From the NCBI GenBank assembly GCA_965649765.1, contig OZ287752.1, positions 62,682,001-62,746,000 of the forward strand: DNA of 64,000 nt. Reading direction: 5' to 3'. Below the pieces are notes generated by a model, which worked only from the letters and a program-made list of their open reading frames with translations, made no database searches and was not told the DNA's origin. Below are positions 27,110-51,300 of this stretch, piece after piece. Positions within the stretch are counted from its first letter, which is position 1; each line of letters opens with the position of its first letter. The position numbers and the translations under genes were made by a program. Origin of the DNA: Bispira polyomma (lineage: Eukaryota).

Positions 27110-28440
27110 TGCGAGTATGTGGGATCATATATAGGTGTATAGGTGCAATTGAGGTCATTCCTTGCCCCTCCCCCAACAGTGGGTCAGTCCATTCCAAGCT
27201 TATTCATTGGTTTCTGCTCTTTTCACAAGTTTTTATAGAAAGCCATAATTATTTAAGTTATTGAAGCAGAAGCACTTAATTTTCGGAGCTTCAATACCTA
27301 TGACGGTGGCCATCTTAGATATTTTAGTGAGTTAAGTTAGATACTTTATCCATATTGTCCATAGTGCCATACTGCATGGATCTTACACCAAACCAAACTA
27401 AAATAGACCAATATCATACATGCGACGAGATGCCAAAGCAGACCTTCTCTGTAAAAATGGCCCAGGGCCGAGATGAAAGAGCAGTCTGATGACGATGATC
27501 TTTTTCGGAAGAGGGTGCATCCGTGTCCACTACACAGGCCACAGACAAACAGGAGGTAGAGTATGATGAGAGTAGCAATAGTGATATAGACTTGAGGCAA
27601 TTATGCAGAACTTTTCAGAGTTTAGTCGGCAGAGATGCTGAGTCTTTATCTTTACATGTTGCTGCATATATAAAAGAAGAAATTTCTTTTAATGCCATAC
27701 TAGAGCCATTTGTAGATAAACCTATATCACTTCACGTTTCATCTTCAATGACTCGGGAGAAAGCCAACTTTGAAACATGGTGGACCTCAGTTGGCCAGGG
27801 AGTATGACAGTAAATAATGAAGTTCATAAAAACGTGTACTGTGGGATGACCTTCATGTTGAACCACCCATCCGTCGATGATATAGTTGCTAGGTTGAAAA
27901 CTTTAGGTCCAGGAGCACGGTTATATATGGTGGACACAAGTAGAGCATTTCGTCATGTCCCAGTAGACCCGGGTAATATAAATTTTTTAGGTATCAAGCA
28001 TTGTGATAACTATTTCATAGACAAGCATGTCTCTTTCGGATTTTAGCATGGAAGTTCAATATTCCAGAGAATGTCTGATGTAATACGGTATATAATGCAC
28101 ACCAAGAACAATGTCCTCTTCACCTAAAATAATATTTGTGTGGTCTACCTTCTAATGTATATAATTCATACAACTGCTCCTTAGATTTATTTTAAGAATT
28201 AAGTCTTACTATCAGTCAGAAAAAGTTGGTAGCACCAGCTACAGTAATAACTTATCTAGGTATTCTTATTGACATGAAAACCAAAACCATTTCAATTAGT
28301 ATGGTGGCCTCTTGGGGTCAAAAAACTTTTTGCACAAAGACAGTATCAATCCCTTCTGGGCTCTCTACTGTATATAACCAAATGTATTCGCCCGACGTAA
28401 TTAAATTTAAGGTTAACTAGCAATGGTTGTTACAACTTAC
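27110..28440 (+). mobile_element. Heavily deleted YR retroelement remnant (5' UTR + RT fragment)
   Basis: VDLSWP..VN...PSVDDIV...DTSRAFRHVPVDP...FGF*HGSSIFQRMSD aligns with pol of the 37677-40439 ORF. GCCATCTTAGATATTTTA matches the 5' UTR of the 1-2197 element. Confidence 0.85.
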
Positions 28441-31400
28441 ACAGTTACTGAATGTAAATGCCTTATTGGTAATAGGATAATTAGGGAATAGATTACCTTA
28501 TACTGAGTCATGCACAAATTAGATTTAAGAGTTCGAAGTTTACTAAGTAAAGCATGATCAGATTTAATAATTCCAAAACAGTACGTCCTAAAATAAATAT
28601 GTTTCAATCATCTCTTGATATTTAATAACCCACTGACATATTGTATTTCGTCATTATATTCCCTTCATAATTACATTCTTATGTCAACCAGTTGACATAA
28701 AGGTATTTGGACATTATTTGGGACAGAACTATACAAAGCTTTCATTTCTGAGATTCTAACTAATTCTAAGAACTAATTTCTGAGAACTGCTATAACTAGT
28801 AATTTTGTTACACATTCGCAGTACAACAACATATTATTAGTTGTTACCTGTGCTACAGCCACAGGTTTTAGCAATACGTCTTGGGCAAATGAAATTTTCC
28901 AGTAAACAAATTTAAAGGAAAAGATTGATACTTTTTATAAATTAAACTTTGATTACTGTTGTAATACTAAACCTCTTTGATACGGTTTTGTAACAATTCC
29001 AAAAAAGTAAAAAGTGGCAGATGGTCATTTGTTACTATAGGTTTAATTAGTTTCATCTTCACTGACCCCAATGTTTACAAGGACAGATGCTAACTTACAT
29101 TTGTGCAGTGTATTTTCCCTTCCAGATACATTTACTTCACCATTGCCTATCACCATGTTTCTATATGGGAGCAATTACAAGAAGCTGGACCATGAGGTAA
29201 TCAGTCCAGTCCATTCTGGATTTTTGTTTTACTTTAACAAATAATTATTACAAAGACATTGCCAGTTTCATATAATATATCATTAGTTAAATTCATTTTA
29301 TTTTTTTATTGTTTGCTAAGGCATTGACTATATATAAAATATTTATAAAAATATTCAGGAAAAACTAAAACTGCGAAGTTCATTGAAAAATAAATAACAT
29401 ATCTATTATAGACCAGTTTATTGGTCATTGAAAACCAGAAGTCAGTTGATGCAGCAAGCAACAAAACTAATTAAGCATGTTACTTTTCCACTCAAAGCAT
29501 TACCAGTCCAAAAAATATTTTCATTAATAACATTCCTAGTTTTAGAATCACTGCATACATATCTCCAAGGAATGTTTACAGGACAGGTACATGTGAAAAA
29601 GCACACCCCCAAGCTATGGAGCGGAGTCCAATTAAAGCTTTCACACCTCTTTAAAATGGGAAGTCAGCACCCTTATGTCAGCTTCAATGTTACTTGTGGG
29701 GTGATGTAAAGCATCACATAGATAGAATAGGGGAGGCGACAAGATTTACAAATATATCCTCCAGACAATGTAATTCTAACCATTCTATAAACCTAATACT
29801 CATTTAATTTAATAATGGAATTTTGTTTGTATTTCTAAATTGTTAGTTACCAATAAAATATACCTACACACTGGGCCTCTTATCAATATACTTTCAACAC
29901 AAAAAATCGGTTATAATCAGTGTACATCAGCAGAGCTGGTTTCCATAGTGATATAGACCTGTGTCTTAATCCCCACATAAATGTTGTTTGAGATGACTTA
30001 GAGTAAATGTCAGAGTTGTTAAAACTTCCAGCAAAAAACCCTCTGCTAAACTTCAATTATCTCAGTTCAGCTTTGTAGAATTAGTCAAGAATTTTTGTCA
30101 GGAAAGCACAGCAAAATTTTAAATAGCGTAATGTCTGCATGTTATTGAATTCCAAACCCATAATTGAAGGCTTAGTCTTGAGTAGCAACAAGAAGAATTT
30201 AAAGCTCTTATTTATTTAAAAAGAGTTTTTATATATAACATGGAAAACTTATGAATGCTATCACATATTTGTTTCCCTACAATGTTTATGCTATGACAGT
30301 GTCACCACACTTTGTGACATCCGCCATTGAGGCTATGCTTTCACATTTGGCCGTTAGTTTGTTTGTCAATTTGATTACACAATAACAACTGATTCAAAAA
30401 TTTAAATCTAATTTAGTCGAGTGCCAGGGCATGAGCTCAGAAAGACTCCTTCACATTTAGTAACAGCTTATTTTCATGTGTTGTCACTAAGATATTCTTG
30501 GAGAAGTTTAAATTATCAGTTACATAGGAAGGTGTGTGTCTTTTTTTCAATTTCACAAAAAAAAAAATATTTTTACATAAATTTAAATAAATATCTTAAC
30601 AATTAACTATTTTGACAGTCAGCTATTACTAATATGCTTATACATCAGATATTAGAGCCAATTGAGAGATATTAAAATTATGGAAGGAAAATATGCAACT
30701 GCAAAGTGGGTTTTTTTCTGAGGATTAGTTAGCTTACTTAATGTTGACACAAAATTGCACTTTGTAACAAGTAATGCATCTGCCATGTGTTTAATTATAA
30801 TTATTAAATAGTGTATACATGTAATCTAATTATCCTTGATAGCTGCTTTATAAGAATTGTTTTTAAAGTCAGGTATAGTTTAAAATTTATGATGACGCTG
30901 ACAAAAATATAACCATTACGTCTTTTGACATATTGTAGCTTTTCATGTGAATTTCCACCTTTTTGATTATAGCTATCTTTATTTAGAGTCACTAGATTCA
31001 CTTCACTTATTATAATCGTGTTTTTGGATACCCTGTCTGTTGTTGCTGTCTTGTTAAAGCTAAAAAATGTTGGCACTCATTTTTCACTGTTTTTGCTGAA
31101 TGTGTTAATTTTATTTTAATCCTGTGCTCTTTAAATTTTCTTGATTGACCCGAAACCCACAAGCTCTAACTATCTCAGTGATCAGTGAAGCACTCACTCC
31201 CAGCTTCAAACGTATGCATATCTTGTGTTGTACCTTTCACACCTCCGTACCACACTTCTTTTATATAACAATACAGTACTACATAACATAGCTGCCCAGC
31301 CGACAAGGGCTTATAATTAACTTCAATTTGTTACATATTTCTCACTTGTATGACAGATACATTTCTATATTAGAAAATGTTTACTATATATTAAACATAA

Positions 31401-32429
31401 CTCTTTTTATGGAGATTCATCAGTGTGTATTAACACATGTGTTGCTTAGAAACAATTTAAGAGAAATCTTATTGTGCAGTTTATTATATGATGAGGCCCA
31501 AATTTAGCGAAATTAACAGTGAATACTTCTCCAGTTAGAAGGTCATTATCAGCCTATACATTTATAGTCTAGCTCTTATATAGGTAAAATTATCAATACA
31601 CTCTTTATCAGTAAAGTGTTACTTTGGGTGTGATTATGGTGTTATCAGTGAATCAACCTTTGAAGTCACTCATCACACTGAAAGACCTGAAATTTAACCC
31701 CCCCAAAAAGAGAACCACCTAAAAATATATCTTTACATCCAGCCATTGTCACCTTAAATTATGTATTTACTTTATATACATTATATCTCCCCAACTGTGA
31801 TATGTTCGACTTGCTTATATATATTGTGATAAAAGTACCTTGTGTTAATGTCAACCTACTATATTATGTGGTGTATATGTTTTTAAAATAAGCAAAAACG
31901 TTTCATTTTATGCTGTAATTAAGTCATATGATAAAGCTTTGTCATCCAAGCACCCAACATTCCAAGTAATCGTCTAAGTTAAAAGTTCGGTTGTAAAAGC
32001 TGTATATCTGCTTGAGTGGTCTGTGTAAATAACAGCAACATACAATCTTTGCTGAAGTGTATACCATAAAGAGCTAAAAACTTGCCCATCTTTAACTATT
32101 GTCCAGACTGAAATAGTTAAGGTAAACAATTGCCCATAAATAATTGAAATGCGGCTACTGTTTTTCAGGTACATTTTAAATGAAATTATATTAAGTGGGG
32201 GAAAAAATAAATTGTTCGAGGTGTAGAATTTGTTTGCTGGATATTACATTATTTACTGTAATACATGTAAACATGGTCCAACACTTCTACTTCTGAAGTA
32301 GTAACAAATCAAAGTGTACCTGTATATTCTTATCTTCTGGCACATGAAATTGGCATTAGGATACAGATAACTCTGAAGCATTACCAACTGTAATTCGAAT
32401 TAGTGTAGGTAAATTGTGGGTAAATAAGT

Positions 32430-33509
32430 ATGGAGGATATTATTTTGGTAACAGGTGCCTCTGGATATATAGCAAGTCATATTGTGAACCAGCTGCTTCA
32501 ACAAAATACAAAGGTTAGAGGCACAGTGCGTAGCCTATCTAACGAACAGAAAGTGCTGCCAATTCAACAGCTAGCCGGTGGCAAAGAAGAGCTGTTGGAA
32601 TTAGTTGAGGCTGATCTGATGGACCAAAGTTCCTGGGTCAAAGCGGTGGAAGGTTGCAAGTATGTCATACATGTGGCCAGTCCCTTTCCCGCAAGTAATC
32701 CTAAGAATGAGGATGATGTCATCAAACCGGCGGTAGAGGGCACGCTGAATGTTTTGAGAGCATGTGTGGAGGCTGGGTCTGTTGAACGAGTAGTTCTTAC
32801 CAGTTCGGATGCAGCAGTGTCTGCCAGTCAGCCGATTACTCCACACAGCATATTTTCAGAAAAGGATTGGACAGAAATAGCAGAAACTAGTAGCGCATAT
32901 GTGAAGAGCAAGACCATGGCTGAAAAAGCTGCTTGGGACTTTATGAAGAATGCTGATGGTGAGGGAAACCTTCCAAAGTTTGAACTGGCAGTAACAAACC
33001 CCGGTTTAGTTATGGGCCCTGTCCTTTGTGGAGCAGTTACAACGAGTATGGAGATTGCTAAGCAAATAATGCAACGGGAAATGCCAATGCTTCCAAAGAT
33101 CAACTTCCCAGTCGTTGATGTGAGAGATGTTTCTGCCGCTCATATTGCTGCCCTGAGTGTACCCGAGGCTGCTGGTCACAGACATTTACTGACCCACAAG
33201 AATATGTGGCTACAAGACATCGCCAAAGTGATTGATGGAGAATTCGGAAAACAGGGATACAATGTTCCCACTACAGAGGCACCGTATCCACTTTTGTGGA
33301 TTCTTGGAAGGTTTGATCCAATGGTAAAAATGTTGCTTCCGGATGTGGGAAGGGTTGTGATACATGACAACACACGGATGACTAAGGTCTTGGGTATCAG
33401 ACCTAAAGATGTAAAGGAGACATTGATTGATATGTGCTATTCTATGGTGGAAAATGGTCAAATTAAGAAGACTTTGAAATACCATCGGCCAAGCAGTAAT
33501 AATGTATAA
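32430..33509 (+). CDS. Extended SDR, NAD(P)-dependent epimerase/dehydratase family (aldehyde reductase / DFR-CCR / GRE2-like), copy 1
   Basis: TGASGYIA Rossmann motif, VRGTVRS, HVASP, TSS catalytic Ser, YVKSK (YxxxK), NPGLVMGP, VDVRDV; 359-aa uninterrupted ORF. Confidence 0.95.
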   Translation: MEDIILVTGASGYIASHIVNQLLQQNTKVRGTVRSLSNEQKVLPIQQLAGGKEELLELVEADLMDQSSWVKAVEGCKYVIHVASPFPASNPKNEDDVIKPAVEGTLNVLRACVEAGSVERVVLTSSDAAVSASQPITPHSIFSEKDWTEIAETSSAYVKSKTMAEKAAWDFMKNADGEGNLPKFELAVTNPGLVMGPVLCGAVTTSMEIAKQIMQREMPMLPKINFPVVDVRDVSAAHIAALSVPEAAGHRHLLTHKNMWLQDIAKVIDGEFGKQGYNVPTTEAPYPLLWILGRFDPMVKMLLPDVGRVVIHDNTRMTKVLGIRPKDVKETLIDMCYSMVENGQIKKTLKYHRPSSNNV

Positions 33510-34539
33510 TATGATTTCAACAATGGCTACTTCACATTAAGTTTAACCAACCACATTCCGATGTATATATATTGTAATATATTAAATAGAGAAAAAAGAT
33601 GCTGTCCTACTTGTCAAGATGATTTATAATGTATGTTAATTGCTATATGTTATGCTCTGATATTAAACAACACTATTAGAACTGTACTCATTTCAATCAA
33701 CACACATTTCGTTGATTGACTGGCTATTTATTTAGACTGAAGTGTTACAAATGTAAATAACTTGTACAGTTGTATTTGTATTCTAATGTATACATGTATA
33801 AGATATGTTTGTATAAATATCACAAATGAAGTAATTTTTCATTAGTGTGTATTTGCTTGCTTGTCAAGATTTGTCAAGCATTGTGAAATAACAAACAGTA
33901 GTTGATGAGACAATGTTAAAAAATAAAAATTGATTACAAAACGTTAGTTTAATATTGTCTTAAAAATTGAGATGTGACATGTAAAATATCATTCAAACTT
34001 TTCAAAACATTGTATAGAAATTATTAATTTTACAAAATTTTACTAGGCAAATATGTGAGCTACTAGTTTTGCATACAATAATTGCCATTCTTTTTTATAT
34101 ATGCTTTGACATAAATGGTATTCAGTGTAATAAGAGGACTTTGTAAAGGTCTACAAAAAGGAGGTAAAATATATTTGTACAGCAGTACATATATTTTGGG
34201 AGTGCAGATTCCCCCCCCCCCCCCTATTTTGGCTAAATACTAATATCATTATCACAGTAGGGTAGTGTATCTTTTGTATGTTTAACCTTTTAAAACTAAA
34301 TTGTCAGGTGTTTATTAGCAAATGTCAGTACATGTAATCATTCCAACTGGTGCTTTATGGTTATTGTAAGAAACACCATCTTCGAGTAGTTTCTATCATA
34401 TAAAACATATGGTTAGAGAATGACATCGTCTCTCCATATTAAGTATCCTTTTGAAGCCTTGTGTAAGATAAGTATAACATATTAAAATTACTCATAATTA
34501 GTTGTGTTTTTTTCATTTATTATGTAGTTTATGTTATCA

Positions 34540-35900
34540 GGCCAAATTATTGGGTAGGCGATATGAAAGAGCTAAAAGAAAGTCCCAGTTTTCAACTGAT
34601 TATGATCGGTTCAGAAAACAAACTAAATATGTTAACTTCCTGCTCAAAACTGCAAAAACAGAATTCTTTTCCGCAATACTGGAATCACAGGAAGACAAGA
34701 AGAAGCTGTTCTGATTAACAAAACAAATTCTAAACTGGTGTCCTGATCAAGTGTTGCCAGATGTACCTCATAACAAAGATTTGGCTTCCTCATGCAACTG
34801 CTTCTTTGTGGTTAAATTATCAAAATAAGAGAGGGTATCTCACTCAAGTCTCCACAAAAAGCGATGGGTCAATTCTTGCCGGATGTGGAGGAAAAGAGCT
34901 ATTTTTTTCAAAACTGGATAAATTTGGTCCGGCAGACACTGCTGAAGTGTGCAGCATCATTATGAAATCTGCTACATGTGATCTGGATGCCTTTCCCACA
35001 ACCCTCTTAAAAGAATGTATTGATGAACTGGTTTATCCTATCACTGACATTGTCAATCTGTCATTGTATGGTGCAGCTGTGTTTTCTGCAACAAAGAGGG
35101 CCATTGGCACTTCTCTGATAAAAAAATATCCCTTTGGACCCTGACAGCCTCAAAAATTACAGACCTGTGTGGAATCTTAAATTGATTTCCAAGATAGTAG
35201 AGAAAATGGTTGCCAAGGGATTATTAGCCCACTTAAACCTCAACCGTCTCTATTCCAGTTTCCAGTCTGTTTATCATGCATATCAACTGAATCAGCTCTT
35301 CCTCGAGTTCACAATGACATATCAGCTGCTTGTCACAAAAAAACATATGGTGGTTCCAGTTCTCCCAGATTTGAGTGTTGCGTTTGATACTATAGATCGC
35401 AGTATCTCACTTACTCACTCAGCTGGCCATTTTGGAATTACTGAAAATGCCCTTCAATGGGATTACTGAAAATGCCCTTCAATGGTTTTGCTCCTACCTT
35501 TCTCAGAGATCGCAAATTGTCAAAGTTGATCAGTTCTTTTCCCTACCAATTAAGCTCACATTTTGAAAGTTATTATACCGCAGCATGGCAATAACTATCA
35601 CTTTTATGATAAGGGGACTCAGCTCTACCTCAGTTTTAGACCAGGATTTGAACTCGACAAAATTTGTCATGAGTTTGAAGAATGTGTCCTTAGTAGTAAA
35701 CAATGGATGCTTGATGATGATAAGATATTGCTTCTGGGATCCTCTTATTTCCTCAAAAAGCTCCTACCCATATCATTGCACATTGGTAGCACTGTTGTAC
35801 ATAGTTCATCTAGTGCTGAAAATTTGTGTGTTTTGTTTTGTTTGATGCAGAAAAAAACATGTACATGTTTGTCCATCATTACTGTCCTTGTCCAATGATT
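34540..35900 (+). mobile_element. Decayed L2/CR1-group LINE RT fragment, present only in duplication unit 1
   Basis: KSATCDLDAFPTTLLKEC, DPDSLKNYRPVWNL, DLSVAFDTID, TQLYLSF; ~25-bp tandem duplication at 35436-35485. Confidence 0.88.
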
Positions 35901-36693
35901 TCATGCAATTAAACCTACTGTCACGTTAGAGATTTCCCTGCGGTTGTCACAGGTGCTAAAGGAATGTTGATAATACACATATACAGCTTCTAAGAGTATG
36001 CAGATTGTACTTAATTATTAGCTCTAAAAAACAACAACACCTTTACACTTGACTGACCTTACTGGCTAAGCCACCTCACACAAACATCTAATTCCTGGGG
36101 ACCAAGTATTTTTTTAAAATAATTATTGAGATCATATCTCCATATATTAACTTATTATCTAAATTTATCGAAATATAATATCGACCAGATAATATCTCAA
36201 TACATTGACTAAGTTTTTCAATATATGGAACAAAACATTTCAATATATTGAATTAGTATATCAACATATTCTGACCAATCTTTGTGAAGTTCTAGGACAT
36301 GGGCCAAGGAAAAATGTAATAATTTTAGGTGGAAAGCCTACCTCCACCTAGGCATGCCACAGAGCCCTAAAAATACATTCTTGTAGCAATGCAAAAACTA
36401 CTACCCCTATTTGGATCTCAATTTTTGACTACAGCATGGGCCAATGAATAAATCTTTATAAGTAATCTATAGGAACATAGCAGTTCTCCTGTTTGCAAAG
36501 TGAGGTAAAGATATAGAGATAAGAAGCAGATTAGGTGACCTTGTAGTAATTAAAGGTGAAGTAAATGAAATTAATAGATAGTAGTTTGAGGTTTATTTTA
36601 TATACACATTAGTAAGGTATATACAGGGTAGGTTAAAAATTTTCAAGTTTTTTTAAAATTTAAAGAGAGAATTTTAAAATATCCCAAGCCAAA

Positions 36694-37659
36694 CTAAAGG
36701 GAAGAAGGGATAGAGGAAGCAAATGCAAGGGGAATAGTTGCAGCAGCCTGAGGAGTTTTCTGAAGATAAACCCAGACTGCTGAAGATCTCCATAACCCGT
36801 GAGACATAATGTTTTGGAGAGAAACGTTATTGTTAAAAGCATAGGTAGCTCCTGACCTTCTAAATGTGTGGAAACTATGACCTTTGTGTGGTATACCTAT
36901 ATGTTGTAAAACTAAAGTTAAAGAATATCTGACATGAGTGTCTACAATGGGAACATGAGGAAAACTTGCAGTAACAAAAAGTGGAGACTCCAGAGGCAAA
37001 GACCTTGAATCTAGCAGTTTATGAAGTGCCCTGACTGGGCACAAATGTATATTCTCCAGTTGGGGTAATTGAATTACATGATGTTCTGATCTATTTTGTA
37101 GGTTCTTAGCCCATTTAAGTATTAAATGGGCTCCAGGATGGCCAAACACAACATCCTTTCTAAGGAAATGACGAGTGGGGTCAAATTTATTTCTGGAATG
37201 TGGAGCAATGTTTGAGATTCTAAGGAATCCAAAGTATGACACCAGAAATATTGCCCTATATAATGGGGGATCCCCCAGAATGTCACATGCTTTAGATATC
37301 TGTTGTAAATGTGTAATATCAAAAATACCCCTAGGTTGAGGTCTAAAAGTAGAAGAATGTGACAAACTCCTAATGAACATGGAAACTGAGGCATTTTCGA
37401 AAATATTTTGGTCCCAATATAGTTTGTTAGCTGTGAACTTTAGAGCTGATAAATGGTTGGTTAAAACATTAGGGGAAGACCCGTTTTGCACCAAGTACTC
37501 CAAAAATGCTATAACAGAATTTGTTAAAATGTCCTCTATGCCAACAAATATAAGAAAAGCAATGAAAGTTCTAAACTGTTGGTTGTATGTAGCAGTAGTC
37601 TTTGGACGTAATGCTGAAGAGACCCGTTTCCATGCAGAATTCATAAGGTGTTGATTCAC
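36694..37659 (-). CDS. Tyrosine recombinase/integrase
   Basis: FGFLRISN (R), KWAKN (K), LCPV, HTFRRSGA (HxxR), HGLWRS, VWVY (Y): full catalytic set. The called start is GTG, so the true start is uncertain. Confidence 0.95.
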   Translation of the reverse strand: MNQHLMNSAWKRVSSALRPKTTATYNQQFRTFIAFLIFVGIEDILTNSVIAFLEYLVQNGSSPNVLTNHLSALKFTANKLYWDQNIFENASVSMFIRSLSHSSTFRPQPRGIFDITHLQQISKACDILGDPPLYRAIFLVSYFGFLRISNIAPHSRNKFDPTRHFLRKDVVFGHPGAHLILKWAKNLQNRSEHHVIQLPQLENIHLCPVRALHKLLDSRSLPLESPLFVTASFPHVPIVDTHVRYSLTLVLQHIGIPHKGHSFHTFRRSGATYAFNNNVSLQNIMSHGLWRSSAVWVYLQKTPQAAATIPLAFASSIPSSL

Positions 37660-37676
37660 GGTGTTGGTTCCTACAA

Positions 37677-40439
37677 TTAAACATGTAAATTTAAGTTAAA
37701 ATACTGAATAGGAATACTATGCCATTTATATCCTGTTTCTAACCTGTGGAGCTGGTGACCAGTTGGTGGGTGGTCTGAGTATAACCTTGATAAAATGTCT
37801 GCTATAGTATTGTCCCTCCCCCTAACATGCTGAATAATTAAAGTAATGTCATAAGCTGCAGTAAGCAGCCACATATTCCTTAAACATAAAGCTAAAAATT
37901 GGTCCTTAGTCTTATCAGACCTAACTACCAGTACCACAGCCATGTTGTCACAGTTAATAATTATTCTCTTATGTTTCCACTGTATCCCCCACACACGCAA
38001 GGCAATTAATATATTAAGCATTTCAATATGGACTATGGACAGATGCTGGTTATAGATGTTATAAAATGGAGAAGCAAAAACTTGGTCAGTATAAACCCCC
38101 CCTAAACCAGTTAAGCATGCATCAATGAATACTTCATTCTGGTGAGGAGGAATTATTGGATCGATATAAGTTATGCCATTATACAAGGGAAGAAAACGTA
38201 TAAACCAAAGCAAATCTGCTTTTATCTCATTAGTAATATGAAATCGTTTTGCATGAGCATTCTTCCTGAAAGCCATTAATAATCGATTTATAAAAATCCT
38301 AGCCGGTTTAACACACTTATGAACATAGAGAAGCCTGCCTAAGACAGATTGGAAATTTCTTCTAGACATCCACTTCTTATTAAAAGCTTGTTGGCAACAT
38401 TCGTAAGTTTGTTCCAATTTTTCCTTGGAAATACTAATAATTCCCTCCTCTATGTCAATATCTATCCCCAGGCAAGTTATATTTCTACTAGGACCTGAGA
38501 TCTTGTCCGGATTTAGGGGAAGACCCAAGGAAGTTACTAAGTCATAAAGTTCGTTAAAAGCGCCTTCTGCCTCATGAGCAGGTGATATTCCGATGTAGTC
38601 ATCAATGTAGCAAAATATAGTATGTTTACGTTTGCTCATGGTGTAAGCTATGACGTCAGAGCATCTCTGAAAAGATCCGGATCCGTGTATCCATCCGAAG
38701 GCCATAGCCGGATCAATATACTTATATCCATCAAAACAGATACCTAGCTTCATGGCATCGACCGGATCTATTCTTAAATTTCTAAATGCCCTCGAAATAT
38801 CCAACTTGAATATCCTAGGATTATCAGTATCCCTGATTTTTGCTACAATGTCATCTATGGTAGGGAACTTTAAAGCGAATTCGACTCCATCGAAACGTTG
38901 TTTATCTACATTACTGTTAACCGAATTGCCTTCCGGATAAGAGAGGTTAAGGATCACTCTGTGTTTATTTTTGTCTTTAGGACGAGTGAGTAAGGGGGAA
39001 CAGTGAAACAACTCGCTATCTACTTCCTTAACTGGACCTAACATGGCACCATTGACTTGTTCCTTACTGATATATTGACTAACTGCCTCTGCATGTTGCA
39101 GGGCAGAACTATGATTAGAAACTTCCTTAACTGTTAGATTTTCAGAACGCTCGAGAGAAAGTGGAAACCCAAAAGTTAAATATTGGAGTAATAACTTATC
39201 CGGATAATCAAGCAAGACCTTCTCCCAAGCCTGGATTTGTAATCCAGAAGCTATTGGAATCCTGGCGCCCTTATAATTGGCACAACCAGAATCCTTGATT
39301 GTGTGAGCTATGTCCACCATCTGTTGCACTGTAGTAATTTTAATTGGAGCCCTATCTGGGCCACAGAATTCAAATTCTGTATGACTTAAAGCAATAAAAC
39401 CCTTATCCTTATCTGGAAAGTTGAAATCCTTAATTACCTTATTCTGACTACCTATCTCTGAACCATGATCCTTAAGTTCGTACACTGTGATATTTGCTTG
39501 TCCTCCATCCAGTGACTTGTTCTTGCGATGAAGTTTTGTCTTCCCTTCATGCATGTCCAAGTTTGTACAATTATGAAATGGCTGTGTGACTATATCATCA
39601 GCTTCAATCAACTTATCGATTAAGTTAGTTATATATGTAGTATAATTAACATTATGCCGTTGTTGACATTCAATATCTTTCTTATAATGATAGCAGGTAT
39701 TCCTAGCCACCATGTGATCAGTATCCGTAGGAATGTATACATTATGAACATCCATAATGTCCTCACGACTTTCCATGATGGTTACCTGTGTACAGAATTT
39801 TCCTAAAATATGAATAGGACCTATTGGAGTGCCAAGACATTTTACTAATGCACTCCCTTTTGTGTGACCCCCATCCCTCCAGGTATAAAAACCATTAATT
39901 TCTGAGTGAACAGAGTTCAAGAAAACCACGGGGAACAATGGTCCCCCAATATCGGTGCAAAATAGCCAATTTGTTTTCGAAATCTCCACATATGCTTGTG
40001 TGGAATCTAACACATTGTAACCACTGCTTTCCATGCCGTGTGGACATTTAACACTAAAATTAGAAATATTTCTTACAGTATTTGTGGTACCCAAATGGAA
40101 CTTGTCTTCACCTGTTATATTTGCCAATTTTTTATTTTTATTGGTTGTATCCCCAGAATCATTATAAGGACTGTCTACATGTGTACGATTTTCATATATA
40201 ATCTTTTTTTCCTCATGATGTTCCATTTGGTTGCCCTCAAACTGTGTAGTAATGCCAGTATCATTGATATCAATTATATTATGCATGCATTGTTTATCCT
40301 TATGACTAATTTCCAAGTAGTTGGGCAAAATGCCCTGATCAGTATAGTTTACAATGTCATTATCTTTGAAATTTATTGACTTAGATACATTAGTTTCTAC
40401 AGTTCTGTCCCTACAACTCACTACTAATGTTTCTTTCAC
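37677..40439 (-). CDS. pol: reverse transcriptase + RNase H (DIRS-type) with a long N-terminal extension
   Basis: SPLLTRPK, RVILNLS, LDISRAF, FGWIHGS, YIDD, CLGI; RNase H FIDAC / HIEM / NCDN / NTIADILSR. Confidence 0.95.
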   Translation of the reverse strand: MKETLVVSCRDRTVETNVSKSINFKDNDIVNYTDQGILPNYLEISHKDKQCMHNIIDINDTGITTQFEGNQMEHHEEKKIIYENRTHVDSPYNDSGDTTNKNKKLANITGEDKFHLGTTNTVRNISNFSVKCPHGMESSGYNVLDSTQAYVEISKTNWLFCTDIGGPLFPVVFLNSVHSEINGFYTWRDGGHTKGSALVKCLGTPIGPIHILGKFCTQVTIMESREDIMDVHNVYIPTDTDHMVARNTCYHYKKDIECQQRHNVNYTTYITNLIDKLIEADDIVTQPFHNCTNLDMHEGKTKLHRKNKSLDGGQANITVYELKDHGSEIGSQNKVIKDFNFPDKDKGFIALSHTEFEFCGPDRAPIKITTVQQMVDIAHTIKDSGCANYKGARIPIASGLQIQAWEKVLLDYPDKLLLQYLTFGFPLSLERSENLTVKEVSNHSSALQHAEAVSQYISKEQVNGAMLGPVKEVDSELFHCSPLLTRPKDKNKHRVILNLSYPEGNSVNSNVDKQRFDGVEFALKFPTIDDIVAKIRDTDNPRIFKLDISRAFRNLRIDPVDAMKLGICFDGYKYIDPAMAFGWIHGSGSFQRCSDVIAYTMSKRKHTIFCYIDDYIGISPAHEAEGAFNELYDLVTSLGLPLNPDKISGPSRNITCLGIDIDIEEGIISISKEKLEQTYECCQQAFNKKWMSRRNFQSVLGRLLYVHKCVKPARIFINRLLMAFRKNAHAKRFHITNEIKADLLWFIRFLPLYNGITYIDPIIPPHQNEVFIDACLTGLGGVYTDQVFASPFYNIYNQHLSIVHIEMLNILIALRVWGIQWKHKRIIINCDNMAVVLVVRSDKTKDQFLALCLRNMWLLTAAYDITLIIQHVRGRDNTIADILSRLYSDHPPTGHQLHRLETGYKWHSIPIQYFNLNLHV

Positions 40440-40457
40440 TGGTAGTCGGTCAAGGTC

Positions 40458-41771
40458 CTAACTATGCTTATTTTCCAACTGTTTTGTGGAATTAGCCTTG
40501 TAGCACTTAAACTCAGGATGAGGCAAATCTTTATTCAAAACGGTAGCACAATGCCAGCAGGCATGCTTGTAATTTCCATGATCATTCTTCTGGGAACATT
40601 TCCCTGAATTAAACAACTTGCAAATCGTGGATCTCCCCGTATACGCTCCAGCCGAACCTGTGCTGTGAGATGAATTAGCCATCACTGTCTGGGACGCGCT
40701 AATTCGGTTGAGCGACCACTGAGTAGTGTTATTCCAGGTCAGCCGACCTTCCTCGACCTCCTGCATGCTTGTCGCCCAAGCCGTGCGAACGACCTCCCAG
40801 GGGAGCGACGAAGCATCCTTCAGCGAGAGTACTACTTGCTGGATCATATCACGTAACAGCTGGTTGTCACTTATCTGTAGAGCATTACACAACTGCCCTG
40901 CAGCCCAATGTGGAAGGGAAAGCTCGTCAAACGTTGGACGCTTACGTGAAGACCCCCCACTCCAACCTTCATTAGCCCATTTCATGCGCGGATCTGTGGC
41001 CGCTATGTCAGTATTATTATAACGTCCCGACTTCTGTCGCGAATGAACCTTACCTTGGTTAAAGATAGCTTGTGCCCTGACTTCATACTCAGCCAGCCGC
41101 TGATTCACTAAGGCTTGCACCTCGGGCATCGACCTCAAAACGTCCGTCCTAGGAACAATTCCATCACGTGTGTATTCAGCTGAGGTTGAAGCTGTAGTAG
41201 TGGGCCCGACCAAACGTCCATAACTGCTGGTGGGCTGAACATAAGCTCGTGGAAGCGCTGTGCTGGATACGGACGCTGGCTGCACGACTGAAGCAGGCGA
41301 ACCGGTTATATTTCCATAACCACTGGTAGGATGTATCACTGGTGAGGGTACGTAAGCCGGTTGAAGCGCTGTAGTGGACACGGCAGTTGTCTGTACAGGT
41401 GTAACCCCCCTAGCTTCTATCTGGTCCAACCGACGGGCTATGGCAGCGTTAGATTGCTCCATTCGATTCAACATTGTCAATATTGCTACGTTCTCACTGG
41501 TAGGATTAACCGAAGTAACGGATTGCATCGCTTGTGGCATTGGATTTTGTAAATCTACCGAGCCCGCCATCGGGAAGGTGGAACCTCCCGCTTGAGGCGA
41601 ATTTTGATGAGAGCAGAGAGCTTGCTCGGACGGTACCCGTAGGTCTTCTATAATACTTTCATTCATGTCAGTGATATGAGCTACATTACCCTTTGTACCC
41701 TTCACAGTAGACTTCTTCTGTTGTTTCGACTTGGGTGCTGCCTTCATCGGTGTTTTCTTAGCTCGTCCCAT
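40458..41771 (-). CDS. gag-like ORF1 with C-terminal zinc fingers
   Basis: Basic N-terminus, coiled coil, KSGRY, W-rich core, CKLFNSGKCSQKNDH (CCCH) and CWHC...H...C. Confidence 0.85.
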   Translation of the reverse strand: MGRAKKTPMKAAPKSKQQKKSTVKGTKGNVAHITDMNESIIEDLRVPSEQALCSHQNSPQAGGSTFPMAGSVDLQNPMPQAMQSVTSVNPTSENVAILTMLNRMEQSNAAIARRLDQIEARGVTPVQTTAVSTTALQPAYVPSPVIHPTSGYGNITGSPASVVQPASVSSTALPRAYVQPTSSYGRLVGPTTTASTSAEYTRDGIVPRTDVLRSMPEVQALVNQRLAEYEVRAQAIFNQGKVHSRQKSGRYNNTDIAATDPRMKWANEGWSGGSSRKRPTFDELSLPHWAAGQLCNALQISDNQLLRDMIQQVVLSLKDASSLPWEVVRTAWATSMQEVEEGRLTWNNTTQWSLNRISASQTVMANSSHSTGSAGAYTGRSTICKLFNSGKCSQKNDHGNYKHACWHCATVLNKDLPHPEFKCYKANSTKQLENKHS

Positions 41772-44288
41772 GTGTGCACGGTATATAATTCACAGTTAAA
41801 ACAATATGTATATAATAAAACCCACTCCAATGTAAAAAACTAAAATACTAAAAGGCTATAAAGTTCAGACACTTTGGCATTAAGTGTCGCCAAAAATATT
41901 TCTAATGTTGTCTCTTGTAAAACGAAATTCAATATGGTAGGATGACCATGTGAGAGGTAAAATTTGGGGTTCAAATGTCTCCCATTGGTTAATCGAAAGA
42001 GAGGCCATTGAACCGTACTCGAATGGACCCCTAGGGGTTAAGGTAAAGGTATATATTTGCTAAGGGAACTGAATAAGCATACCCCTTTAGGGTCGTGCTG
42101 TGTAGAATCTCCATCCCCTTCAGATCCATCTTGTTACCTTATTTATAAAATGCATGAATACCTCTCTCCTCGTTTATTTTGTAATCTTCTTGCTGTTTAA
42201 TTTTAACAACTTTGACCATATCTGGGAGAAAAAGTTGCTTGTGTAATTAGATTATTTGCATTAAGTATCTACATGTACATCTTTTTAAAGCTAAACAAGT
42301 CTAAAACAAATTGAAATGGATGTTTATAAACAAATACATCATTTTTCGTGTACTTTTATCCTAAGACAGGACAGATGTAATCATTACATGTGGGTTGTGT
42401 GATGTGCAAACTGAGTGGCCCAATCCTCCGTCATAAGTTTTCTTTTAATTACAAGGTAAATGACTTTCATCAGGGTTCACAGCTTGTAAACGAGTTACAA
42501 ATCAAACAAAGGATGGGGTAGCACTCACATCCACTATTTAAATGTTATTATTAAGCATACTTATTACTCTATTTATTGTATTCAAAGTTACTAGGCCTTA
42601 AATTTCAGCATTGAATGCTGTGCTTTTTCTTCTGCCCCTTCAGGGTGATTGCTAAATATTTGAAAATAAGTATATATAAAATCGACTCAAATATTAAACT
42701 CGAAGATACTGCATTGAAACTTTCTACCTAAATTGTCAACTTGCTAATGTAAAGTATTCAATCTGATCAAACCATTTGGCTACATTTTGACTACGCTGAG
42801 TGAAGAGACTATACATTTTTTGTCTAACTATAATAATAACAATTGAAGTATATATATAGAGCCAAATTAATGAGAACATTCTCTAAAGTGCTGATATCCA
42901 TTGAGGGAAGGTTGTTACAAAAAACCATCCACCAGGAAAGGGTGACTATGGAGGGGGTAGGACAGTCTGAAATAGTAATCTCAAGCATCAGACTGGATTG
43001 TACTTTGAAATGAATCTCAAGCACCACACTGGATTGCAGTTTAACATGTATCTCAAGCACCACACTGGACTTTCTTGTAAGATCATTTTTCAGAGACAAA
43101 GCAACAAAAAAGCTGATGATAGATGACTGGTGTAAAAATATGTCTAAACTTTTCTAACAGTAAATGTTTCCCATGCGTTTAACAGAACATATTTTTATGG
43201 AGATTCTTCAATGGGTATAACCACATGTTGTTCAGAAACAATTTACGAGAAATCTTGTTGTACAGTTTCTTACATAATCAGGCCTGAACTGAAAGGTAAA
43301 TACGCCTCTATTAAGAAGGTAATTATCAGCCCAATACATTTATCGTCTAGCGCTTATGTAGTTAATATTGTCAATGAACTTCTTATCAGTAAAGTGTGAG
43401 CGTGGGTGTATATTAGTTAAATGTTGTTCAATACAATAAAAATGTTGGTAATGAAGGAATCATGCTTTGAAATCATTTACACACTAAGACCTGCAACTTA
43501 ACAATAAAAATGATAAACATCTAAAAGTATCTCTCTAAAAGTACCCAAGCTATTGTCACCCTTAAATTATGTATTTACTTTTAATTGTATGAAATATATC
43601 CCGCCAACTGTGATATGTTAGACTTTGTTATATATATTGTGATCAAATAACTTGTGTTAATACATCACTATATCATGGGGTGCACATATTATGTATAATA
43701 GTAAAAATGTTTTATTTTATGATCTAACTAAATCATAATACAAGGCTAGTAAATCAAGCACCCCAAATTCCTAGTCATCGTCCAAGTCAAAAGGTTGGTT
43801 GTAAAAGCTATTTATCTGCTTGAGTGGTCTGTGTAAAGATCATTATTATACAATATCTGCTGGAGTGCATACCATAAAGAAATTAAAACTTGCCAATCTT
43901 TAAAAATTGTCAAACTCTATTTGTTTTATAAAACAGTTAAGGTAAACAATTGTGTATAAATGGTGGAAATACGACTACTGATTTGAGGTACATTTCAAAT
44001 GAAATCATATTTAGTGAGGACAAAATAAAGGGTGTAAGGTGTAGAATTTGTTTGCTGAATATTACATTCTTTACTGTAGCATACATATTTTCTAAACAGT
44101 ACACATAGATTAACATTTCTACTTCTAAAGTAGTGACACACCTAAGTGTACCTGTATATTCTGCACCTTCTGGCACATGCAACGTTATATTGGCATGTGG
44201 ATACAGATAAGCCTTACCAACTTTGTAATTTGAATTAGTGACATAAAAAAAATCAGCTGTTATTCATTCACTTTGTATGTAAATAAAT

Positions 44289-45368
44289 ATGGAGGATATC
44301 ATTTTGGTAACCGGTGCTTCTGGATATATAGCAAGTCATATTGTGAACCAGCTGCTTCAACAAAATGCAAAAGTTAGAGGCACAGTGCGTAGCTTGTCTA
44401 ACGAACAGAAAGTGCTGCCAATTCGGCAACTAACTGGTGGCAGAGATGATATGTTGGAATTAGTTGAGGCTGATCTGATGAACCAAAGTTCCTGGGTCAA
44501 GGCGGTGGAAGGTTGCAACTATGTGATACATGTGGCCAGTCCCTTTCCAGCAAGTAATCCTAAGAATGCAGAAGAGGTCATCACACCAGCTGTTGAGGGA
44601 ACATTAAATGTTTTGCGAGCATGTGTGGAGGCTGGGTGTGTTGAACGAGTAATTCTTACCAGTTCGCAAATAGCGGTGTCAGCGACTCAGAAAATTTCTC
44701 CCCATAGGATTTTTTCAGAAAAGGATTGGACAGATATAGCAGAAACTAGTAATGTATACGTGAAGAGTAAGACCATGGCTGAAAAAGCTGCTTGGGACTT
44801 TATGAAGAAGGCTGATGGCAAGGGAAACCTTCCAAAGTTTGAACTGGCAGTAACAAACCCTGGTTTAGTTATGGGCCCTGTCCTTTGTGGAGCAGTTACC
44901 ACGAGTATGGAGATTGCTAAGCAAATAATGCAACGGGAAATGCCAATGGTTCCAAAGATCAACTTTCCAGTCATTGATGTGAGAGATGTTGCTGCTGCCC
45001 ATATTGCTGCTATGAGGATACCCAAGGCCGCTGGTCATAGACATTTACTAACCCATGAGAATATGTGGCTACAAGACATGGCCAAGGTGATTGATGGAGA
45101 ATTCGGAAAACAGGGATACAATGTTCCTACCACAGGGGCACCGTATCCACTTTTGTGGATTTTTGGAAGGTTTGACCCAACAGTGAAGATGTTACTTCCG
45201 GATGTGGGAAAGGTGGTGATGCACGACAACACACGCATGACTAATGTCTTGGGTATCAAACCTAAAGACGCAAAGGAGACATTAATTGATATGTGCTATT
45301 CTATGGTGGAAAATGGTCAAATAAAGAAGACATCTAAATACCAGCCACCAAGCAGTATTAATTTATAA
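44289..45368 (+). CDS. Extended SDR oxidoreductase, copy 2
   Basis: Same motifs as copy 1; about 48 differences in 359 aa (manual count). Confidence 0.95.
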   Translation: MEDIILVTGASGYIASHIVNQLLQQNAKVRGTVRSLSNEQKVLPIRQLTGGRDDMLELVEADLMNQSSWVKAVEGCNYVIHVASPFPASNPKNAEEVITPAVEGTLNVLRACVEAGCVERVILTSSQIAVSATQKISPHRIFSEKDWTDIAETSNVYVKSKTMAEKAAWDFMKKADGKGNLPKFELAVTNPGLVMGPVLCGAVTTSMEIAKQIMQREMPMVPKINFPVIDVRDVAAAHIAAMRIPKAAGHRHLLTHENMWLQDMAKVIDGEFGKQGYNVPTTGAPYPLLWIFGRFDPTVKMLLPDVGKVVMHDNTRMTNVLGIKPKDAKETLIDMCYSMVENGQIKKTSKYQPPSSINL

Positions 45369-48300
45369 GATGGTTTCAACATTGGCTACTTCAGACTGAG
45401 TTTAATGGACCACATCCCAATGTATATGTATTGTAATATATTAAAGGGGAAAAAGGTGCTGTCCCACTTGTCAAGATGGTTTATAATGTATGTTGATTGC
45501 TGTATATTATCCCCTCATATTGAATAAAACTTTTAGGTCTGTACTCATTTCAATCAATACACATTTCGGTGATTGAGTGGCTTATTTATAAGACGTTCAT
45601 TCAGACTTAAGTGTTGCATATGTAGAAAACATGCATAAGATATGTGTGTATATATGCTACACAGTAAGTGCAAAAGTAATGTTTCAATAGTGTGTATTAG
45701 TTTACTTGGCTAAGATTTGTCAGGCATTGTGTAATATCATTCCTGATAAACACTAGTTTATGAGACAATGTTTAAAAAATTATAATTGGTTACAAAATGT
45801 AAGTTTAATATTGTCTTAAAAATTGATGTAAGAGAAGTAAAATACCAGCCTTCTGTCACTTCTGAGAGCATTGTAAAGAAAAACAATTAATAAAGGCCTG
45901 CACAAAGAATGTAACAAATACTGGAGCTGCAAAGAATATGAGTCTAACCATCACCGTCACTTCCACCACACTATCATTTTAGCTAAATACCTTGAGATAT
46001 ATTATCAAACCATAACACAGTGGACTGACAATTGTATCTTTTGTTCTTATGTTAAACCTTTTTCAAACAAATCTCATGATAGGCGATCATTCCAACTAGT
46101 GTTTATTTTATTTTATTACTCATGTATTTTACAATTTAAGGCAACAGTAAATGCAATTAATTTTATGACACCAAATCAATACTAGTAGACTGGTTGTTGT
46201 TTTTCTTTATCTGGTGCAGCCTGATATTGTTTTCATTCTAAAAAGGGCGCCACCATTTTAGAAAAAATATGTAAGGCCTGCATGAATTGGTTGTAAGCAA
46301 TTGACCGGGCCAAACTGATGGGTGCCAGATTTATTAGAGTATATAGTTACTATATCAACGTTACTGTGTTTCACATTTTACGTCTATGTCTGTTTTAAAA
46401 GACATCTCTTGTTTATTCTATAAAAACACTGGGCACGCCAGAAGGGAGAGTGCTAACTTGGGTTTGTTTCATCAACACATACCCCATCATTTCCGTCCTT
46501 GTCCAATCTTTTCACCCAATTAAACCCAGTGTCACATTAGTGACTTCCTTGCTGCTGTCACAGGTGCTAAAGGAATGTTGAGAATACACATATACAGCTT
46601 CTAAGCGCATGCAGCTTGTACTTAATTATTAGCTCTATAAAAACCATAACACCTGTCATGAACATTTCAGGTATATGCTAAGGTTTGGTTACTAAGAATT
46701 TTGTGTACAAAATGATTTATGTTTACAATACTAGCGTTTTCAATTAGGACCAAGTATATTTTTTATTATAATTATTGAGATGATGTCTCCATATATTGAC
46801 TTATTACCTCAATATTTATCGAGATATAATATTGATCAGATAATGTCTTAAGATGTGGACTAAGTGTCTTAATATATGGAAACACATATCTCAATATATT
46901 AAATTACTATATCTCCACATATCGCAATAATATGCAACTATATTGATTTAGTATATCAACAGATTCTGACCAATCTTTGTGTCTAGGACATGGGCCAAGG
47001 AAGAAACTATTATATTAGGTGGAAAGCCTACCTTCACCGAGGCTCACCACAGGGTCCCCAAAAAACATCCCTCCAACATTTGCACGAAACTACTGCACCG
47101 ATTTTGATCTAACTTTTGTTGAAGGCTGTAGCATGGGCCAATTTAAAAATCATTTTGAAGACATTAGAAAATCATTTACCTATTAACATTGAAATCCTCA
47201 TCTCATTCAGATACATGTATTTTTCTTATTTATATGAATTTCACTTTCTTAATTAAGAGAGTAAACTTATGAAAATTTAGCTGCAGCAGATACCTCCAAT
47301 GACATTAAGGTAAGGTCAAAGTAGGAGCTTCAAGGTCAAATTTTAGACCAAACAAGAACACTCAGTATACTTCCTGTAACAAACACTTGATGTACAGCCA
47401 AAGATGAATCCATCAAATTTTGGAATAAATCCTAAAAGTGATGAGCCAATAATATTTCAATCTTTGGTCCAATGGGGCATTGGGAGAGGTATGTACACCA
47501 TTAAAATGTAATTCACAACATTTAAGAGTCAATATTTTGAAATTTTTTCTTGCTATGCTGGAATAAAAAATTAATCTATTGAGACACTACATGTTCAGGA
47601 AAGAGGCCAACGTCATAAACACACAAGTTATTTAATGTTATAGTCTTTCCTGAGTGGTTTGTATGTTTACTTTAAGATATATCTAAAATCATGTCATCTA
47701 TTCTATTTGATAACATTGCTGTTGTCAAACATACACAGTCACAAAAACAAGCATGGTCTTTTAAAAAAAAGACACGTGCACAGTTGTGAAATACACAAAC
47801 ATTGTTATGGCCACATTATATTCAGACACTAGGCTTCGCCTGATACCAATAAATCAGACCCCTCTCATTTTGGCCAGGTTGATTGCCTTCAAATCAGTCC
47901 ATGAAGGCATTACCAATTTTTTGAGGTGGCAGCATCCTTTTTTAGAATGAAAACAATATCAGACTGTCTACAATGCATGAATAGTTCTTACTTAGAGCTA
48001 AACAAGTCCAATACAACAATAAAGGGATGGTTCTAAACAAATACATCATGATTCTTGTACTATTATCCTAAGACAGGACAGAAGTAATCATTACCAGCGG
48101 GTTGTGTGATGTGGAAACTAAGTGGCCCAATCCTCAGTCGTATGTTTTCTTTTAATTGTAAATATCTGTTTAAATGTGTAGGTTTATAGTCTGATATCAC
48201 CCCTAGTGAGGTATCATCCTACTTTACAGTTTACACTCCTAAGTCTGGATCTTCCACTTGTCAACCAATTGTTCAGTCTCAATCAACTCAAATATGACAC

Positions 48301-51300
48301 TGCAAAGATACTGCATTGAAACTTTCAAGTATAAAGGATTCAATCTGATCGACCGACATGGCTACATTTTAACTATGCTGAATAAAGAGACTATCATTTT
48401 TTTTTCTAAATTCAGTTTCACATCACTTTCGATAGTTTAGGCCATATCACGATAGCCAGATTTAACTGTGCACAGAATTAGTGCTGAAGCACTGTGAAGC
48501 ACCGGCCCAAGATAACCAGTACCTAAACTTTTTACATTGGTGATAAGCCAGTCAAATTATAAAATGAATGCTTCCAAATATTCATAAAATATACTAAGGA
48601 ACTTATATTAAATTAACTACAATAAAAATAATGAAAGCATTTATGGAGCACCAAATTGATGAGAACATCCTCTAAGGCGTTGTTTTAAAAAAGGGAAGGT
48701 CCATGGGCAAGCAAAAGATTGTTACCAAAAAACATCCACCGGGGAAGGGTGACTAAGGAGAGGGATAAGCTACAGACTGTGATCTGACAGTTCCTTCCAA
48801 CGGGAGCCGAGGCAGCATAAACAGCATCTGCCAACTAGTTCTGTATGAAATTCATAGTAAATGTCCTAATTTTTAGGACTGTCAATGTATAGCAGTCGTC
48901 TGTATCTCTCAGTAATGTCACCAGAAAAACTTGTCTCTCCACATCTGACTTCTTACCTAAACAAAACTTGCAGGTTCATAATCATTTAAAGTTGTAGCAC
49001 CTGCTGAATGGAAAAGGCTTTGTGCCAGTCTTCATACTAAAACAAGAAATGTGGACTTCCAAAAAAAAGATCAAAACACATCTATATCAACTCGCTTTTT
49101 CACCTTAATATTTATCTGCCGGTTACGACTAAACTCTAATCTCTTTCCTCCTATAATTGACTAAGACGTGCACCACAGAGGATGCCTGGTCATCAATTGT
49201 GATGCTATAGCAGTAAAACATTGACATAATTAATTGGCCATGCATGTAGAACTTGCTGTACGGTTGTAGAATAATTGGATTAAGCCAGTCGGTCTGGTAA
49301 AACTTTGGTGAACGTTACACAATAATCATTCTGTTGATGCTAAATTAGTGTTAGACAGGTGTTGGTAAGGATATGTAAACGTGAACTAATATGAAGGTAT
49401 GAAAGACTAAATTAATCTAATTAGTACAGTTACAACAAATATTAAACAAATTTTTAATCAACTATGTCTTGTTACAAAATTCCTGTCAGGAAATCTAATT
49501 AGTGCATTTGGTCTCAAAGGGTCTATAATGACGTCTCAAATATTTTAATTCGAAATAATCTGATAATAATCCCTCTGTCAAACGGATACTAGCTTGGATA
49601 TTATTAAGACCAGGTGACATTGTTATCCCATTCATTGTTCTTTGGACATTCATTATGCCTTACAAGTCAGGAATTGACCATATTCCCTGACTACAATGAC
49701 TCTTACAAGTAGGGTAAACCCCAATTGATACAATTTACAACACTTTTTTACCTATATTTTGTAATTGTAGCTGGTAATTAATTTGACCAAAACACATCAT
49801 ATTTTCCATCCACTTGAATAACAATCAGTTTGTTGAGGATTAACACATTACGTGTTCTATAGACCTCAATAAGAAATACAGGAAAGATAAAAGTCTTTTT
49901 AAAATGGTTTAATGAAAATAAACAATAAATAATACGTTGATTTGCAATTGTTTGTTTCTATTGTATTCCAAATTATGGTTATAAAATAATGCTTAAGTTG
50001 AGGAAATTTTTGTGTATTATTTGACACTTTTAAAATACCTGTGTCGTAATGAGATTTACTACAATTGGAACAAATGCATAGCTGGGAAGTATAGAGAGGG
50101 AGAGAATTTTTTTATTCTAGTGCCACCTGCACTCTAATATTTTATATACATTTTAACAAATCATAACCATGGCAACCAACTCAGCATACATGGGCTTTTG
50201 AGGCACTATTTTGCGCAGAGTACATGAGATATCAAAAATATAAATATACTATATACAGAAGTTGTAGTATAGATGTGACATATAGTTAACATACATATAA
50301 AACTAGAAGTGGACAGCCATCCGTGTAAATGAGACTTAGGTATTACAAAGCACACATGTATATAGAAAACATACAGGGAAGTGAGAGTGATGAAATATCA
50401 GCCCCTTCTTAAAGTCTTAAAGTGTAGTAAATGACTTCCATGAATTACTTTACAACCCCCCCCCCCCCCCCGGCTCCTCCTCCTTCCTGTGCTATAAGGA
50501 ATGTGTACGAGACCCCTGGGGCTTATCTAGCCCAGGGTTATGTCATCTTGTTAGCACATATGGTATAACTCAAGTGTCCTTTAGGGCTGGACTAATGGAT
50601 TAGCTTGTCCACAGGCTGCAACAGCCCACTATTCAAACAGACAGAAAAAGTCCCACCACTTAAACTTACACTGGGATCAGGACAATCTTAAGTGTATGAG
50701 TTACACATGAACTAATGCTGTAATTATTATAACTTGACTGATTTAAACCACATGGTAAAGTATTAGTCCAATAGTTAGTCCAAACAAAGAGATTCCTTGG
50801 CAAAGGAGACAGGATTTAAAAATCCCACTAGGATTCTGCCTTTCATTTCATCTGAACACATCCTTATGTAAACTGGGTCACTGATTTAACGTTAATGGTA
50901 TCATACTTATGGAATCTATACTGCCTGATATTCCCAATGGGTATATATTTACATAGCCGTGATATTCTTTGTTTTTCAAGTTTAAGTTAAAGGTGTTTGT
51001 GAAGATAAATATACATATACATATGTCCAGAGAGAGAGAGAGAGGGGGGAGAGAGAGATAGTATTCTACATGCATCAAAACTAATGCAAAGAAATAACTC
51101 ATTAAGCTTTAGCAATTCTGCTTCAATTCACTTAATGTACCCAGTCAATCCTGCATGATTGCAGTAGCTCTGAGTTTGAAGCAAAGTATCCCTTGGATGT
51201 ATATATACACAAGAGTGAAGGAATGCTGAAGTAGTTATGTAAATATGGCTCAGGGGTCCAACTGTGTGTACTATCCATCAACTTGATCATGATTTCACCA

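Follow-up and report, generated by a model that had tools for sequence, protein, structure and literature searches.

A coding-intact Ngaro-type retrotransposon copy with a precise 3' truncation, from a young family in the genome of Bispira polyomma

The window analysed here is a stretch of 64,000 nucleotides from contig OZ287752.1 of Bispira polyomma. It carries a retrotransposon copy in which a gag-like protein, a reverse transcriptase with RNase H (RT-RNase H) and a tyrosine recombinase (YR) are encoded between a repeat A1 and a repeat B (Table 1). All three reading frames are open and do not overlap when counted from ATG to stop, as the initial annotation of the window had described. The host region of the element is an old tandem duplication (31372-42957 versus 43159-48764, 70-86% identity), in which two intronless ORFs of 361 aa for an NAD-dependent epimerase/dehydratase lie on the plus strand at 32424-33509 and 44283-45368. 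The window holds further retrotransposon sequences: a second Ngaro-type family, represented by its 5' part, with an RT about 38% identical (1-2177, minus), pieces of gag, RT/RNase H and YR from a third, broken YR retrotransposon (about 52145-54477, minus), and a separate RT fragment (27777-28394, plus).

Table 1. Features of the shortened retrotransposon copy, its host flanks and the paralogous unoccupied site (positions within the window).
Feature	Position	Strand	Description
Whole element copy	36481-42104	minus	5624 bp; A1-gag-pol-YR-B
Repeat A1	41893-42104	minus	212 bp; first bases TACACAGC; second copy (A2) in full copies
gag-like ORF	40458-41789	minus	443 aa between stops; 437 aa from the ATG at 41771
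pol ORF	37677-40457	minus	926 aa; N-terminal 370 aa, RT (YIDD at 617), RNase H
Tyrosine recombinase ORF	36694-37695	minus	333 aa; first ATG at 37644, 316 aa from ATG
Repeat B	36481-36686	minus	206 bp; last bases GGAGAACTG; single in this copy
Host flank	36455-36480		common to no other copy; aligns with the paralogous unit
Host flank	42105-42148		its TATAAATAAG common to the paralogue
Unoccupied paralogous site	47021-47234	plus	insertion point at about 47191/47192

The gag-like ORF has a C-terminus rich in Cys and His and matched no Pfam or PHROG profile. Comparison of pol with Pfam gave a weak RVT_3 match; for its RT-RNase H part, 242 homologues were found, with PF00078 in most of the 120 listed. 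YR matched the PHROG integrase profiles (PHROG 1, E 4.7e-10), Pfam phage-integrase matches stayed under the cut-off, and there were no matches among PDB sequences. By the YR consensus, we take FLRISN, HTFRR, HGLW and VWVY as candidate catalytic motifs. The motifs LSYP and CDN-AVV have a Ngaro-like look. The initial annotation had seen no methyltransferase, and this holds: after the last RNase H motif 35 aa remain, which leaves no space for such a domain, and the median after this motif is also 35 aa among the 103 homologues holding it. PF05869 was absent from the three proteins of the window copy and from the 120 listed homologues, and a profile search of the genome for it, meant to find DIRS or PAT references, gave no match with 1 candidate scored, from which its absence does not follow. 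The longer 3' tail of full-length genomic copies, described below, contains no reading frame above 76 aa except the end of YR.

Between subfamilies, the dN/dS values of gag, RT-RNase H and YR lay within 0.09-0.32 (gag 0.14-0.32, YR 0.09-0.27). The N-terminal 370 aa of pol, at 0.58-0.86, are weakly constrained. Thirteen codon changes are private to the window copy, 11 non-synonymous and 2 synonymous at a ratio of sites of 3.4 to 1; thus, the window copy gives no purifying signal, and the end branches of full copies are expected to resemble its 11:2 ratio.

The TAG that ends gag (40458-40460) is in frame with pol and is kept in 37 of the 38 copies covering the site, including an approximately 82% identical subfamily. 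It is followed on its 3' side by a stem-loop (z -2.28, 5/200 shuffles), and the stop may be read through or may mark a splice acceptor. Directly before the YR ATG lies an acceptor-like TTGTAG/G (about 37670-37681, minus), whose seven bases are kept in 39/39 rows of the alignment; the pyrimidine run upstream differs in a few rows, and YR may be translated from a spliced message. A -1 frameshift from pol into YR was considered and rejected: the A AAT TTA heptamer before the pol stop is altered in most other copies, and downstream RNA folding is no better than in shuffles (z -0.41). One short copy (L006) has a 2-bp deletion that joins pol and YR in a single frame of 1253 aa.

The extent of the element became clear from copies elsewhere in the genome (1.035 Gb in 75 contigs, with 21 of 2917 candidates scored), which are 94-99% identical and start and stop at window positions 42104 and 36481. 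The boundaries proposed initially, 36455 and 42148, are 26 and 44 bp outside the element in host DNA, and the true distance from the YR stop to the element end is 213 bp, not about 240 bp. TTTATAA had been reported at both ends; it is present at 36455-36461 and 42142-42148, but in host DNA outside the element. Because the proposed boundaries sit in host DNA, neither TTTATAA nor the palindromic circle junction derived from these ends belongs to the element; this junction had been assembled from host flanks, and no other copy has those bases. Within 50 bp, TTATAA was present in only 3 of 40 distinct flanks on the 5' side and in only 3 of 46 distinct flanks on the 3' side, and TTTATAA was rejected as a terminus or target. 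Likewise, the TATAA said to border the element at 1-2197 is outside it: that element ends at about 2175-2178 in most copies, with a few alignments ending at 2170-2185.

A flanking deletion had also been suggested. There is none at the insertion point, because the two flanks, when joined, match the unoccupied paralogous site at 68% identity across the joint. The extra sequence of the paralogue, about 0.75 kb, starts some 43 bp from the joint and contains a high-copy repeat of about 230 bp. Short-read contigs (35788-36510 and 42079-42899) matched both host junctions with no differences, B1 and B2 of full copies not being distinguishable in them. No empty-site joint was found among the 15 joints listed out of 72 from three public runs (at most two samples, one study); the source of these runs is possibly that of the assembly itself, and no RNA run was among those listed.

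The genomic copies revealed that the complete element has the layout A1-gag-RT/RNase H-YR-B1-A2-spacer-B2, with a spacer of 652-663 bp and a length of 6.69-6.71 kb. Among 19 other near-full copies fetched, 16 run from B1 into A2, the spacer and B2, and 3 end at B. The internal junction, in which GGAGAACTG is followed directly by TACACAGC, is gapless in all 16 full copies. A1 and A2 differ in these copies by 0-1 mismatches, with an 8-bp gap in one copy, and B1 and B2 by 0-3. Thus, past B, other copies have a second 5' terminal region, the very observation that the initial annotation had named beforehand as speaking against its reading of an element with no terminal repeats. The window copy lacks this A2-spacer-B2 tail of about 1.07 kb. 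It is indeed without a long direct or inverted repeat: in a self-comparison of 36181-42400, the best matches were a 25-bp palindrome and a 47-bp repeat of 74% identity, both at E 0.009.

The short form is not confined to the window. In a census of YR ends (30 of 40 matches fetched), 24 of 30 had the A2-spacer-B2 tail and 6 were short; all six short ends terminate at the last base of B, at five independent sites, as two share flanks. Thirty spacer loci were examined out of 44 matches: 24 of them lie behind an internal region, 2 are solo A-spacer-B copies with exact ends (L030, L048), 2 are truncated at the 5' end, and the remaining 2 come from a single place (L049/L050/L130) at which the tail is doubled, with 100% identity over 1289 bp. 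This doubled tail could be an assembly error. Permuted insertions were not encountered: a preceding B was absent from all 30 5' ends examined out of 41 matches, and no spacer locus among the 30 had the form A-spacer-B-A-ORFs-B. The spacer (for example, L003:634-1288) is non-coding, and about 390 bases beside A2 have kept 82-83% identity in the older subfamily, which points to a possible cis element; an Rfam search with the full copy L003 gave a single chance-level match (E 0.47). The second family, compared in three copies (L145, L146, L147), has A1 (211 bp), B1 (523 bp), A2, a spacer of about 945 bp and B2 in L146, and L145 is its A-ORFs-B short form. Its copy in the window continues to the left of the window, and a unit of about 208 bp is tandemly repeated in its tail.

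Insertion took place without a target-site duplication: among 34 insertions, none had 3, 5 or 6 bp, one had 4 bp and five had 2 bp. For L005, a 99.3% identical empty site is the exact join of its flanks. Just before A1, we observed a target bias R-K-A-N-W-T, with W at -2 in 40/40 5' flanks (uncorrected p 1e-4 to 3e-3 at 5 of 20 positions tested), while no comparable bias was found after B, where the lowest p was 0.015.

The initial annotation had left two readings of the missing repeats: a repeat-less lineage that regenerates its ends in another way, or a 3'-truncated copy. In a tree of 39 internal regions, from which L124 was omitted as a duplicate site and the inserted stretches of L133 and L138 were skipped, the short copies occupy 9 of 39 rows and require 8 state changes, against a shuffled mean of 8.3; as few changes arose in 252 of 500 shuffles. 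The sister of the window copy is a full-length element (L121; support 100/97, path 0.0052). L134 and L135, both short, pair as sisters with unstarred support (93/85) and long end branches, an old pair. The short forms are more frequent in the older subfamily (4/7 against 5/31, Fisher p 0.04), this older group consisting of only 7 rows. End branches overall are longer in short than in full copies (median 0.0074 against 0.0033, p 0.025), whereas no such trend exists inside the main family (5 short against 26 full, p 0.21), and very young short copies occur, with end branches of 0.0015 in L015 and 0.0029 in the window copy. The short copies therefore form no clade; their origin is scattered, and they are not a lineage. 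The reading as a 3'-truncated copy was correct in substance, the loss being exact at the last base of B rather than ragged.

The family is Ngaro-type. Published definitions of Ngaro name split direct repeats placed 3' of YR, a missing methyltransferase and ORFs that overlap little (PMC4157794, PMC3266345, PMC9210276, PMC3783388), overlaps usually being absent (PMC3266345). They belong to the order DIRS and are reported from zebrafish, sea urchin and fungi, with high abundance in Nematostella and Lottia (PMC4157794). The family described here shares the arrangement A1-[gag, RT/RH, YR]-B1-A2-B2, with the genes in this order on one strand, little ORF overlap, the internal repeats downstream of YR and no methyltransferase; the spacer parts A2 from B2. 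The window copy itself, with A1 and one B, is a deleted member that lacks the complete split repeats. The repeats resemble in size those given for Xenopus DIRS-53_XT (A 236 and B 152 bp; PMC9210276), and solo remnants and partial repeat loss are also on record for Ngaro. In contrast, the conserved non-coding spacer between A2 and B2 and the single frame shared by gag and pol across one TAG set the family apart, and it has no SGNH hydrolase ORF, unlike amphibian Ngaros.

PAT-like elements (PAT, TOC, kangaroo) also have split direct repeats and a YR in place of a DDE integrase, but encode a methyltransferase after RNase H (PMC4157794, PMC7192593); here, none was found. A PAT lineage of C. briggsae has lost its methyltransferase (PMC4157794), and structure alone is therefore no proof of Ngaro; the Ngaro assignment is a structural one. 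DIRS1-like elements share gag, RT/RH, YR and the missing target duplication, but the family has neither inverted terminal repeats nor an internal complementary region, a methyltransferase or a matching trinucleotide at both ends: full copies have direct repeats only, and the window copy has no inverted ones. VIPER/SIRE elements of trypanosomes have split direct repeats as well. In VIPER, YR precedes RT. SIRE corresponds to the A2-B2 region, with a short unique stretch in between (PMC6681497), resembling the solo A-spacer-B copies found here, and VIPER is confined to kinetoplastids (PMC9210276).

The window copy is almost certainly a derivative of this split-repeat family. We favour, with a probability of roughly 0.6, that the tail was lost after insertion by homologous recombination between B1 and B2, by analogy with the formation of solo LTRs. 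The copy would have integrated as a full A1-ORFs-B1-A2-spacer-B2 element, whose two 206-bp B repeats, 1.07 kb apart, would then have recombined and deleted A2-spacer-B. The three products expected from recombination between repeats are all present, namely A-ORFs-B, solo A-spacer-B and a doubled tail; the last, read as the reciprocal product of an unequal exchange, supports loss after insertion. The excess of short forms in the older subfamily and their longer end branches overall also speak for it. The same pair of full and short forms recurs in the second family, and for Cafeteria Ngaros solo AB repeats have been ascribed to recombination (PMC8547959). Against this route stand the missing age trend in the main family, the small size of the older group and the sister pair L134/L135. 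The sequence cannot date the loss, because B1 and B2 are near-identical at insertion, and no individual with a full element at the same locus was seen in the three public runs (at most two samples).

Under the published DIRS-type model, the internal B1-A2 joint would template end repair after reverse transcription, and YR would insert the product without a target duplication. In the DIRS-1 replication model, the internal joint is essential (PMC7192593). Since the window copy has no such joint, it would be unable to rebuild its ends and would be a dead end, which could still act as a protein donor in trans.

The loss could also have preceded integration, if reverse transcriptase jumped from B2 to B1 and YR inserted the monomeric A-ORFs-B, which we regard as possible but unlikely. 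Deletion between direct repeats by reverse transcriptase is known from retroviruses. A template switch would likewise give exact ends, a scatter over the tree and both solo and doubled forms, and the very young short copies agree with it. It does not predict the excess of short forms among older copies, a weak point, and the 0/30 permuted 5' ends hint that integration needs context past the bare junction. Even then, the short copy is a dead-end derivative of the split-repeat family.

A bolder version, which seems to us doubtful, is that the short units arose ahead of integration and entered the genome as monomers, and that the insertion pattern reveals the mode of Ngaro integration. This idea arises because full elements are expected to form a circle with two identical B-A joints, yet no permuted insertion was found and the target preference is one-sided. 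If true, the recombinase would use the newly made joint only, or would act on a substrate that is not a symmetric double-stranded circle, as hinted by DIRS-1 work on linear single-stranded cDNA (PMC7192593). The literature consulted describes neither A-ORFs-B copies nor a lack of permuted forms explicitly; other Ngaro papers may do so.

Resolution by YR of a two-joint circle into A-ORFs-B and A-spacer-B circles, each integrating, would account for both products with their exact ends. Equally used joints would make about half of the full insertions permuted, against none at either the 5' ends or the spacer loci, and we judge this very improbable. It is slightly less probable still that the animal has the full-length element at this place and that the assembly merged B1 onto B2: the short-read contigs, which confirm the host junctions, read alike for B1 and B2, but the assembly is chromosome-scale, resolves 24 of 30 such tails, and contains short forms in two families. 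Finally, an autonomous repeat-less lineage, its ends regenerated through a YR-excised circle transcribed across the junction, can practically be set aside: the open ORFs, the recurrence of the short form and the pair L134/L135 speak for it, but the short copies are unclustered, the window copy has a full-length sister, the junction proposed for it consists of host DNA, and the private codon changes give no purifying signal.

The window copy is thus a coding-intact member of a young Ngaro-type family with a precise 3' truncation, an instance of the ordinary decay of a known transposon class. It also calls for caution, as a lone coding-intact Ngaro copy can seem repeat-less, which is the case for about a fifth of the sampled 3' ends. 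At the level of the family, the conserved spacer and the in-frame gag stop are of interest as well. The family offers some 30 young copies whose ends are exact and includes all three recombination products; permuted insertions were not seen, and the target bias lies on one side. It is thereby a usable natural data set for the little-tested model of Ngaro replication.
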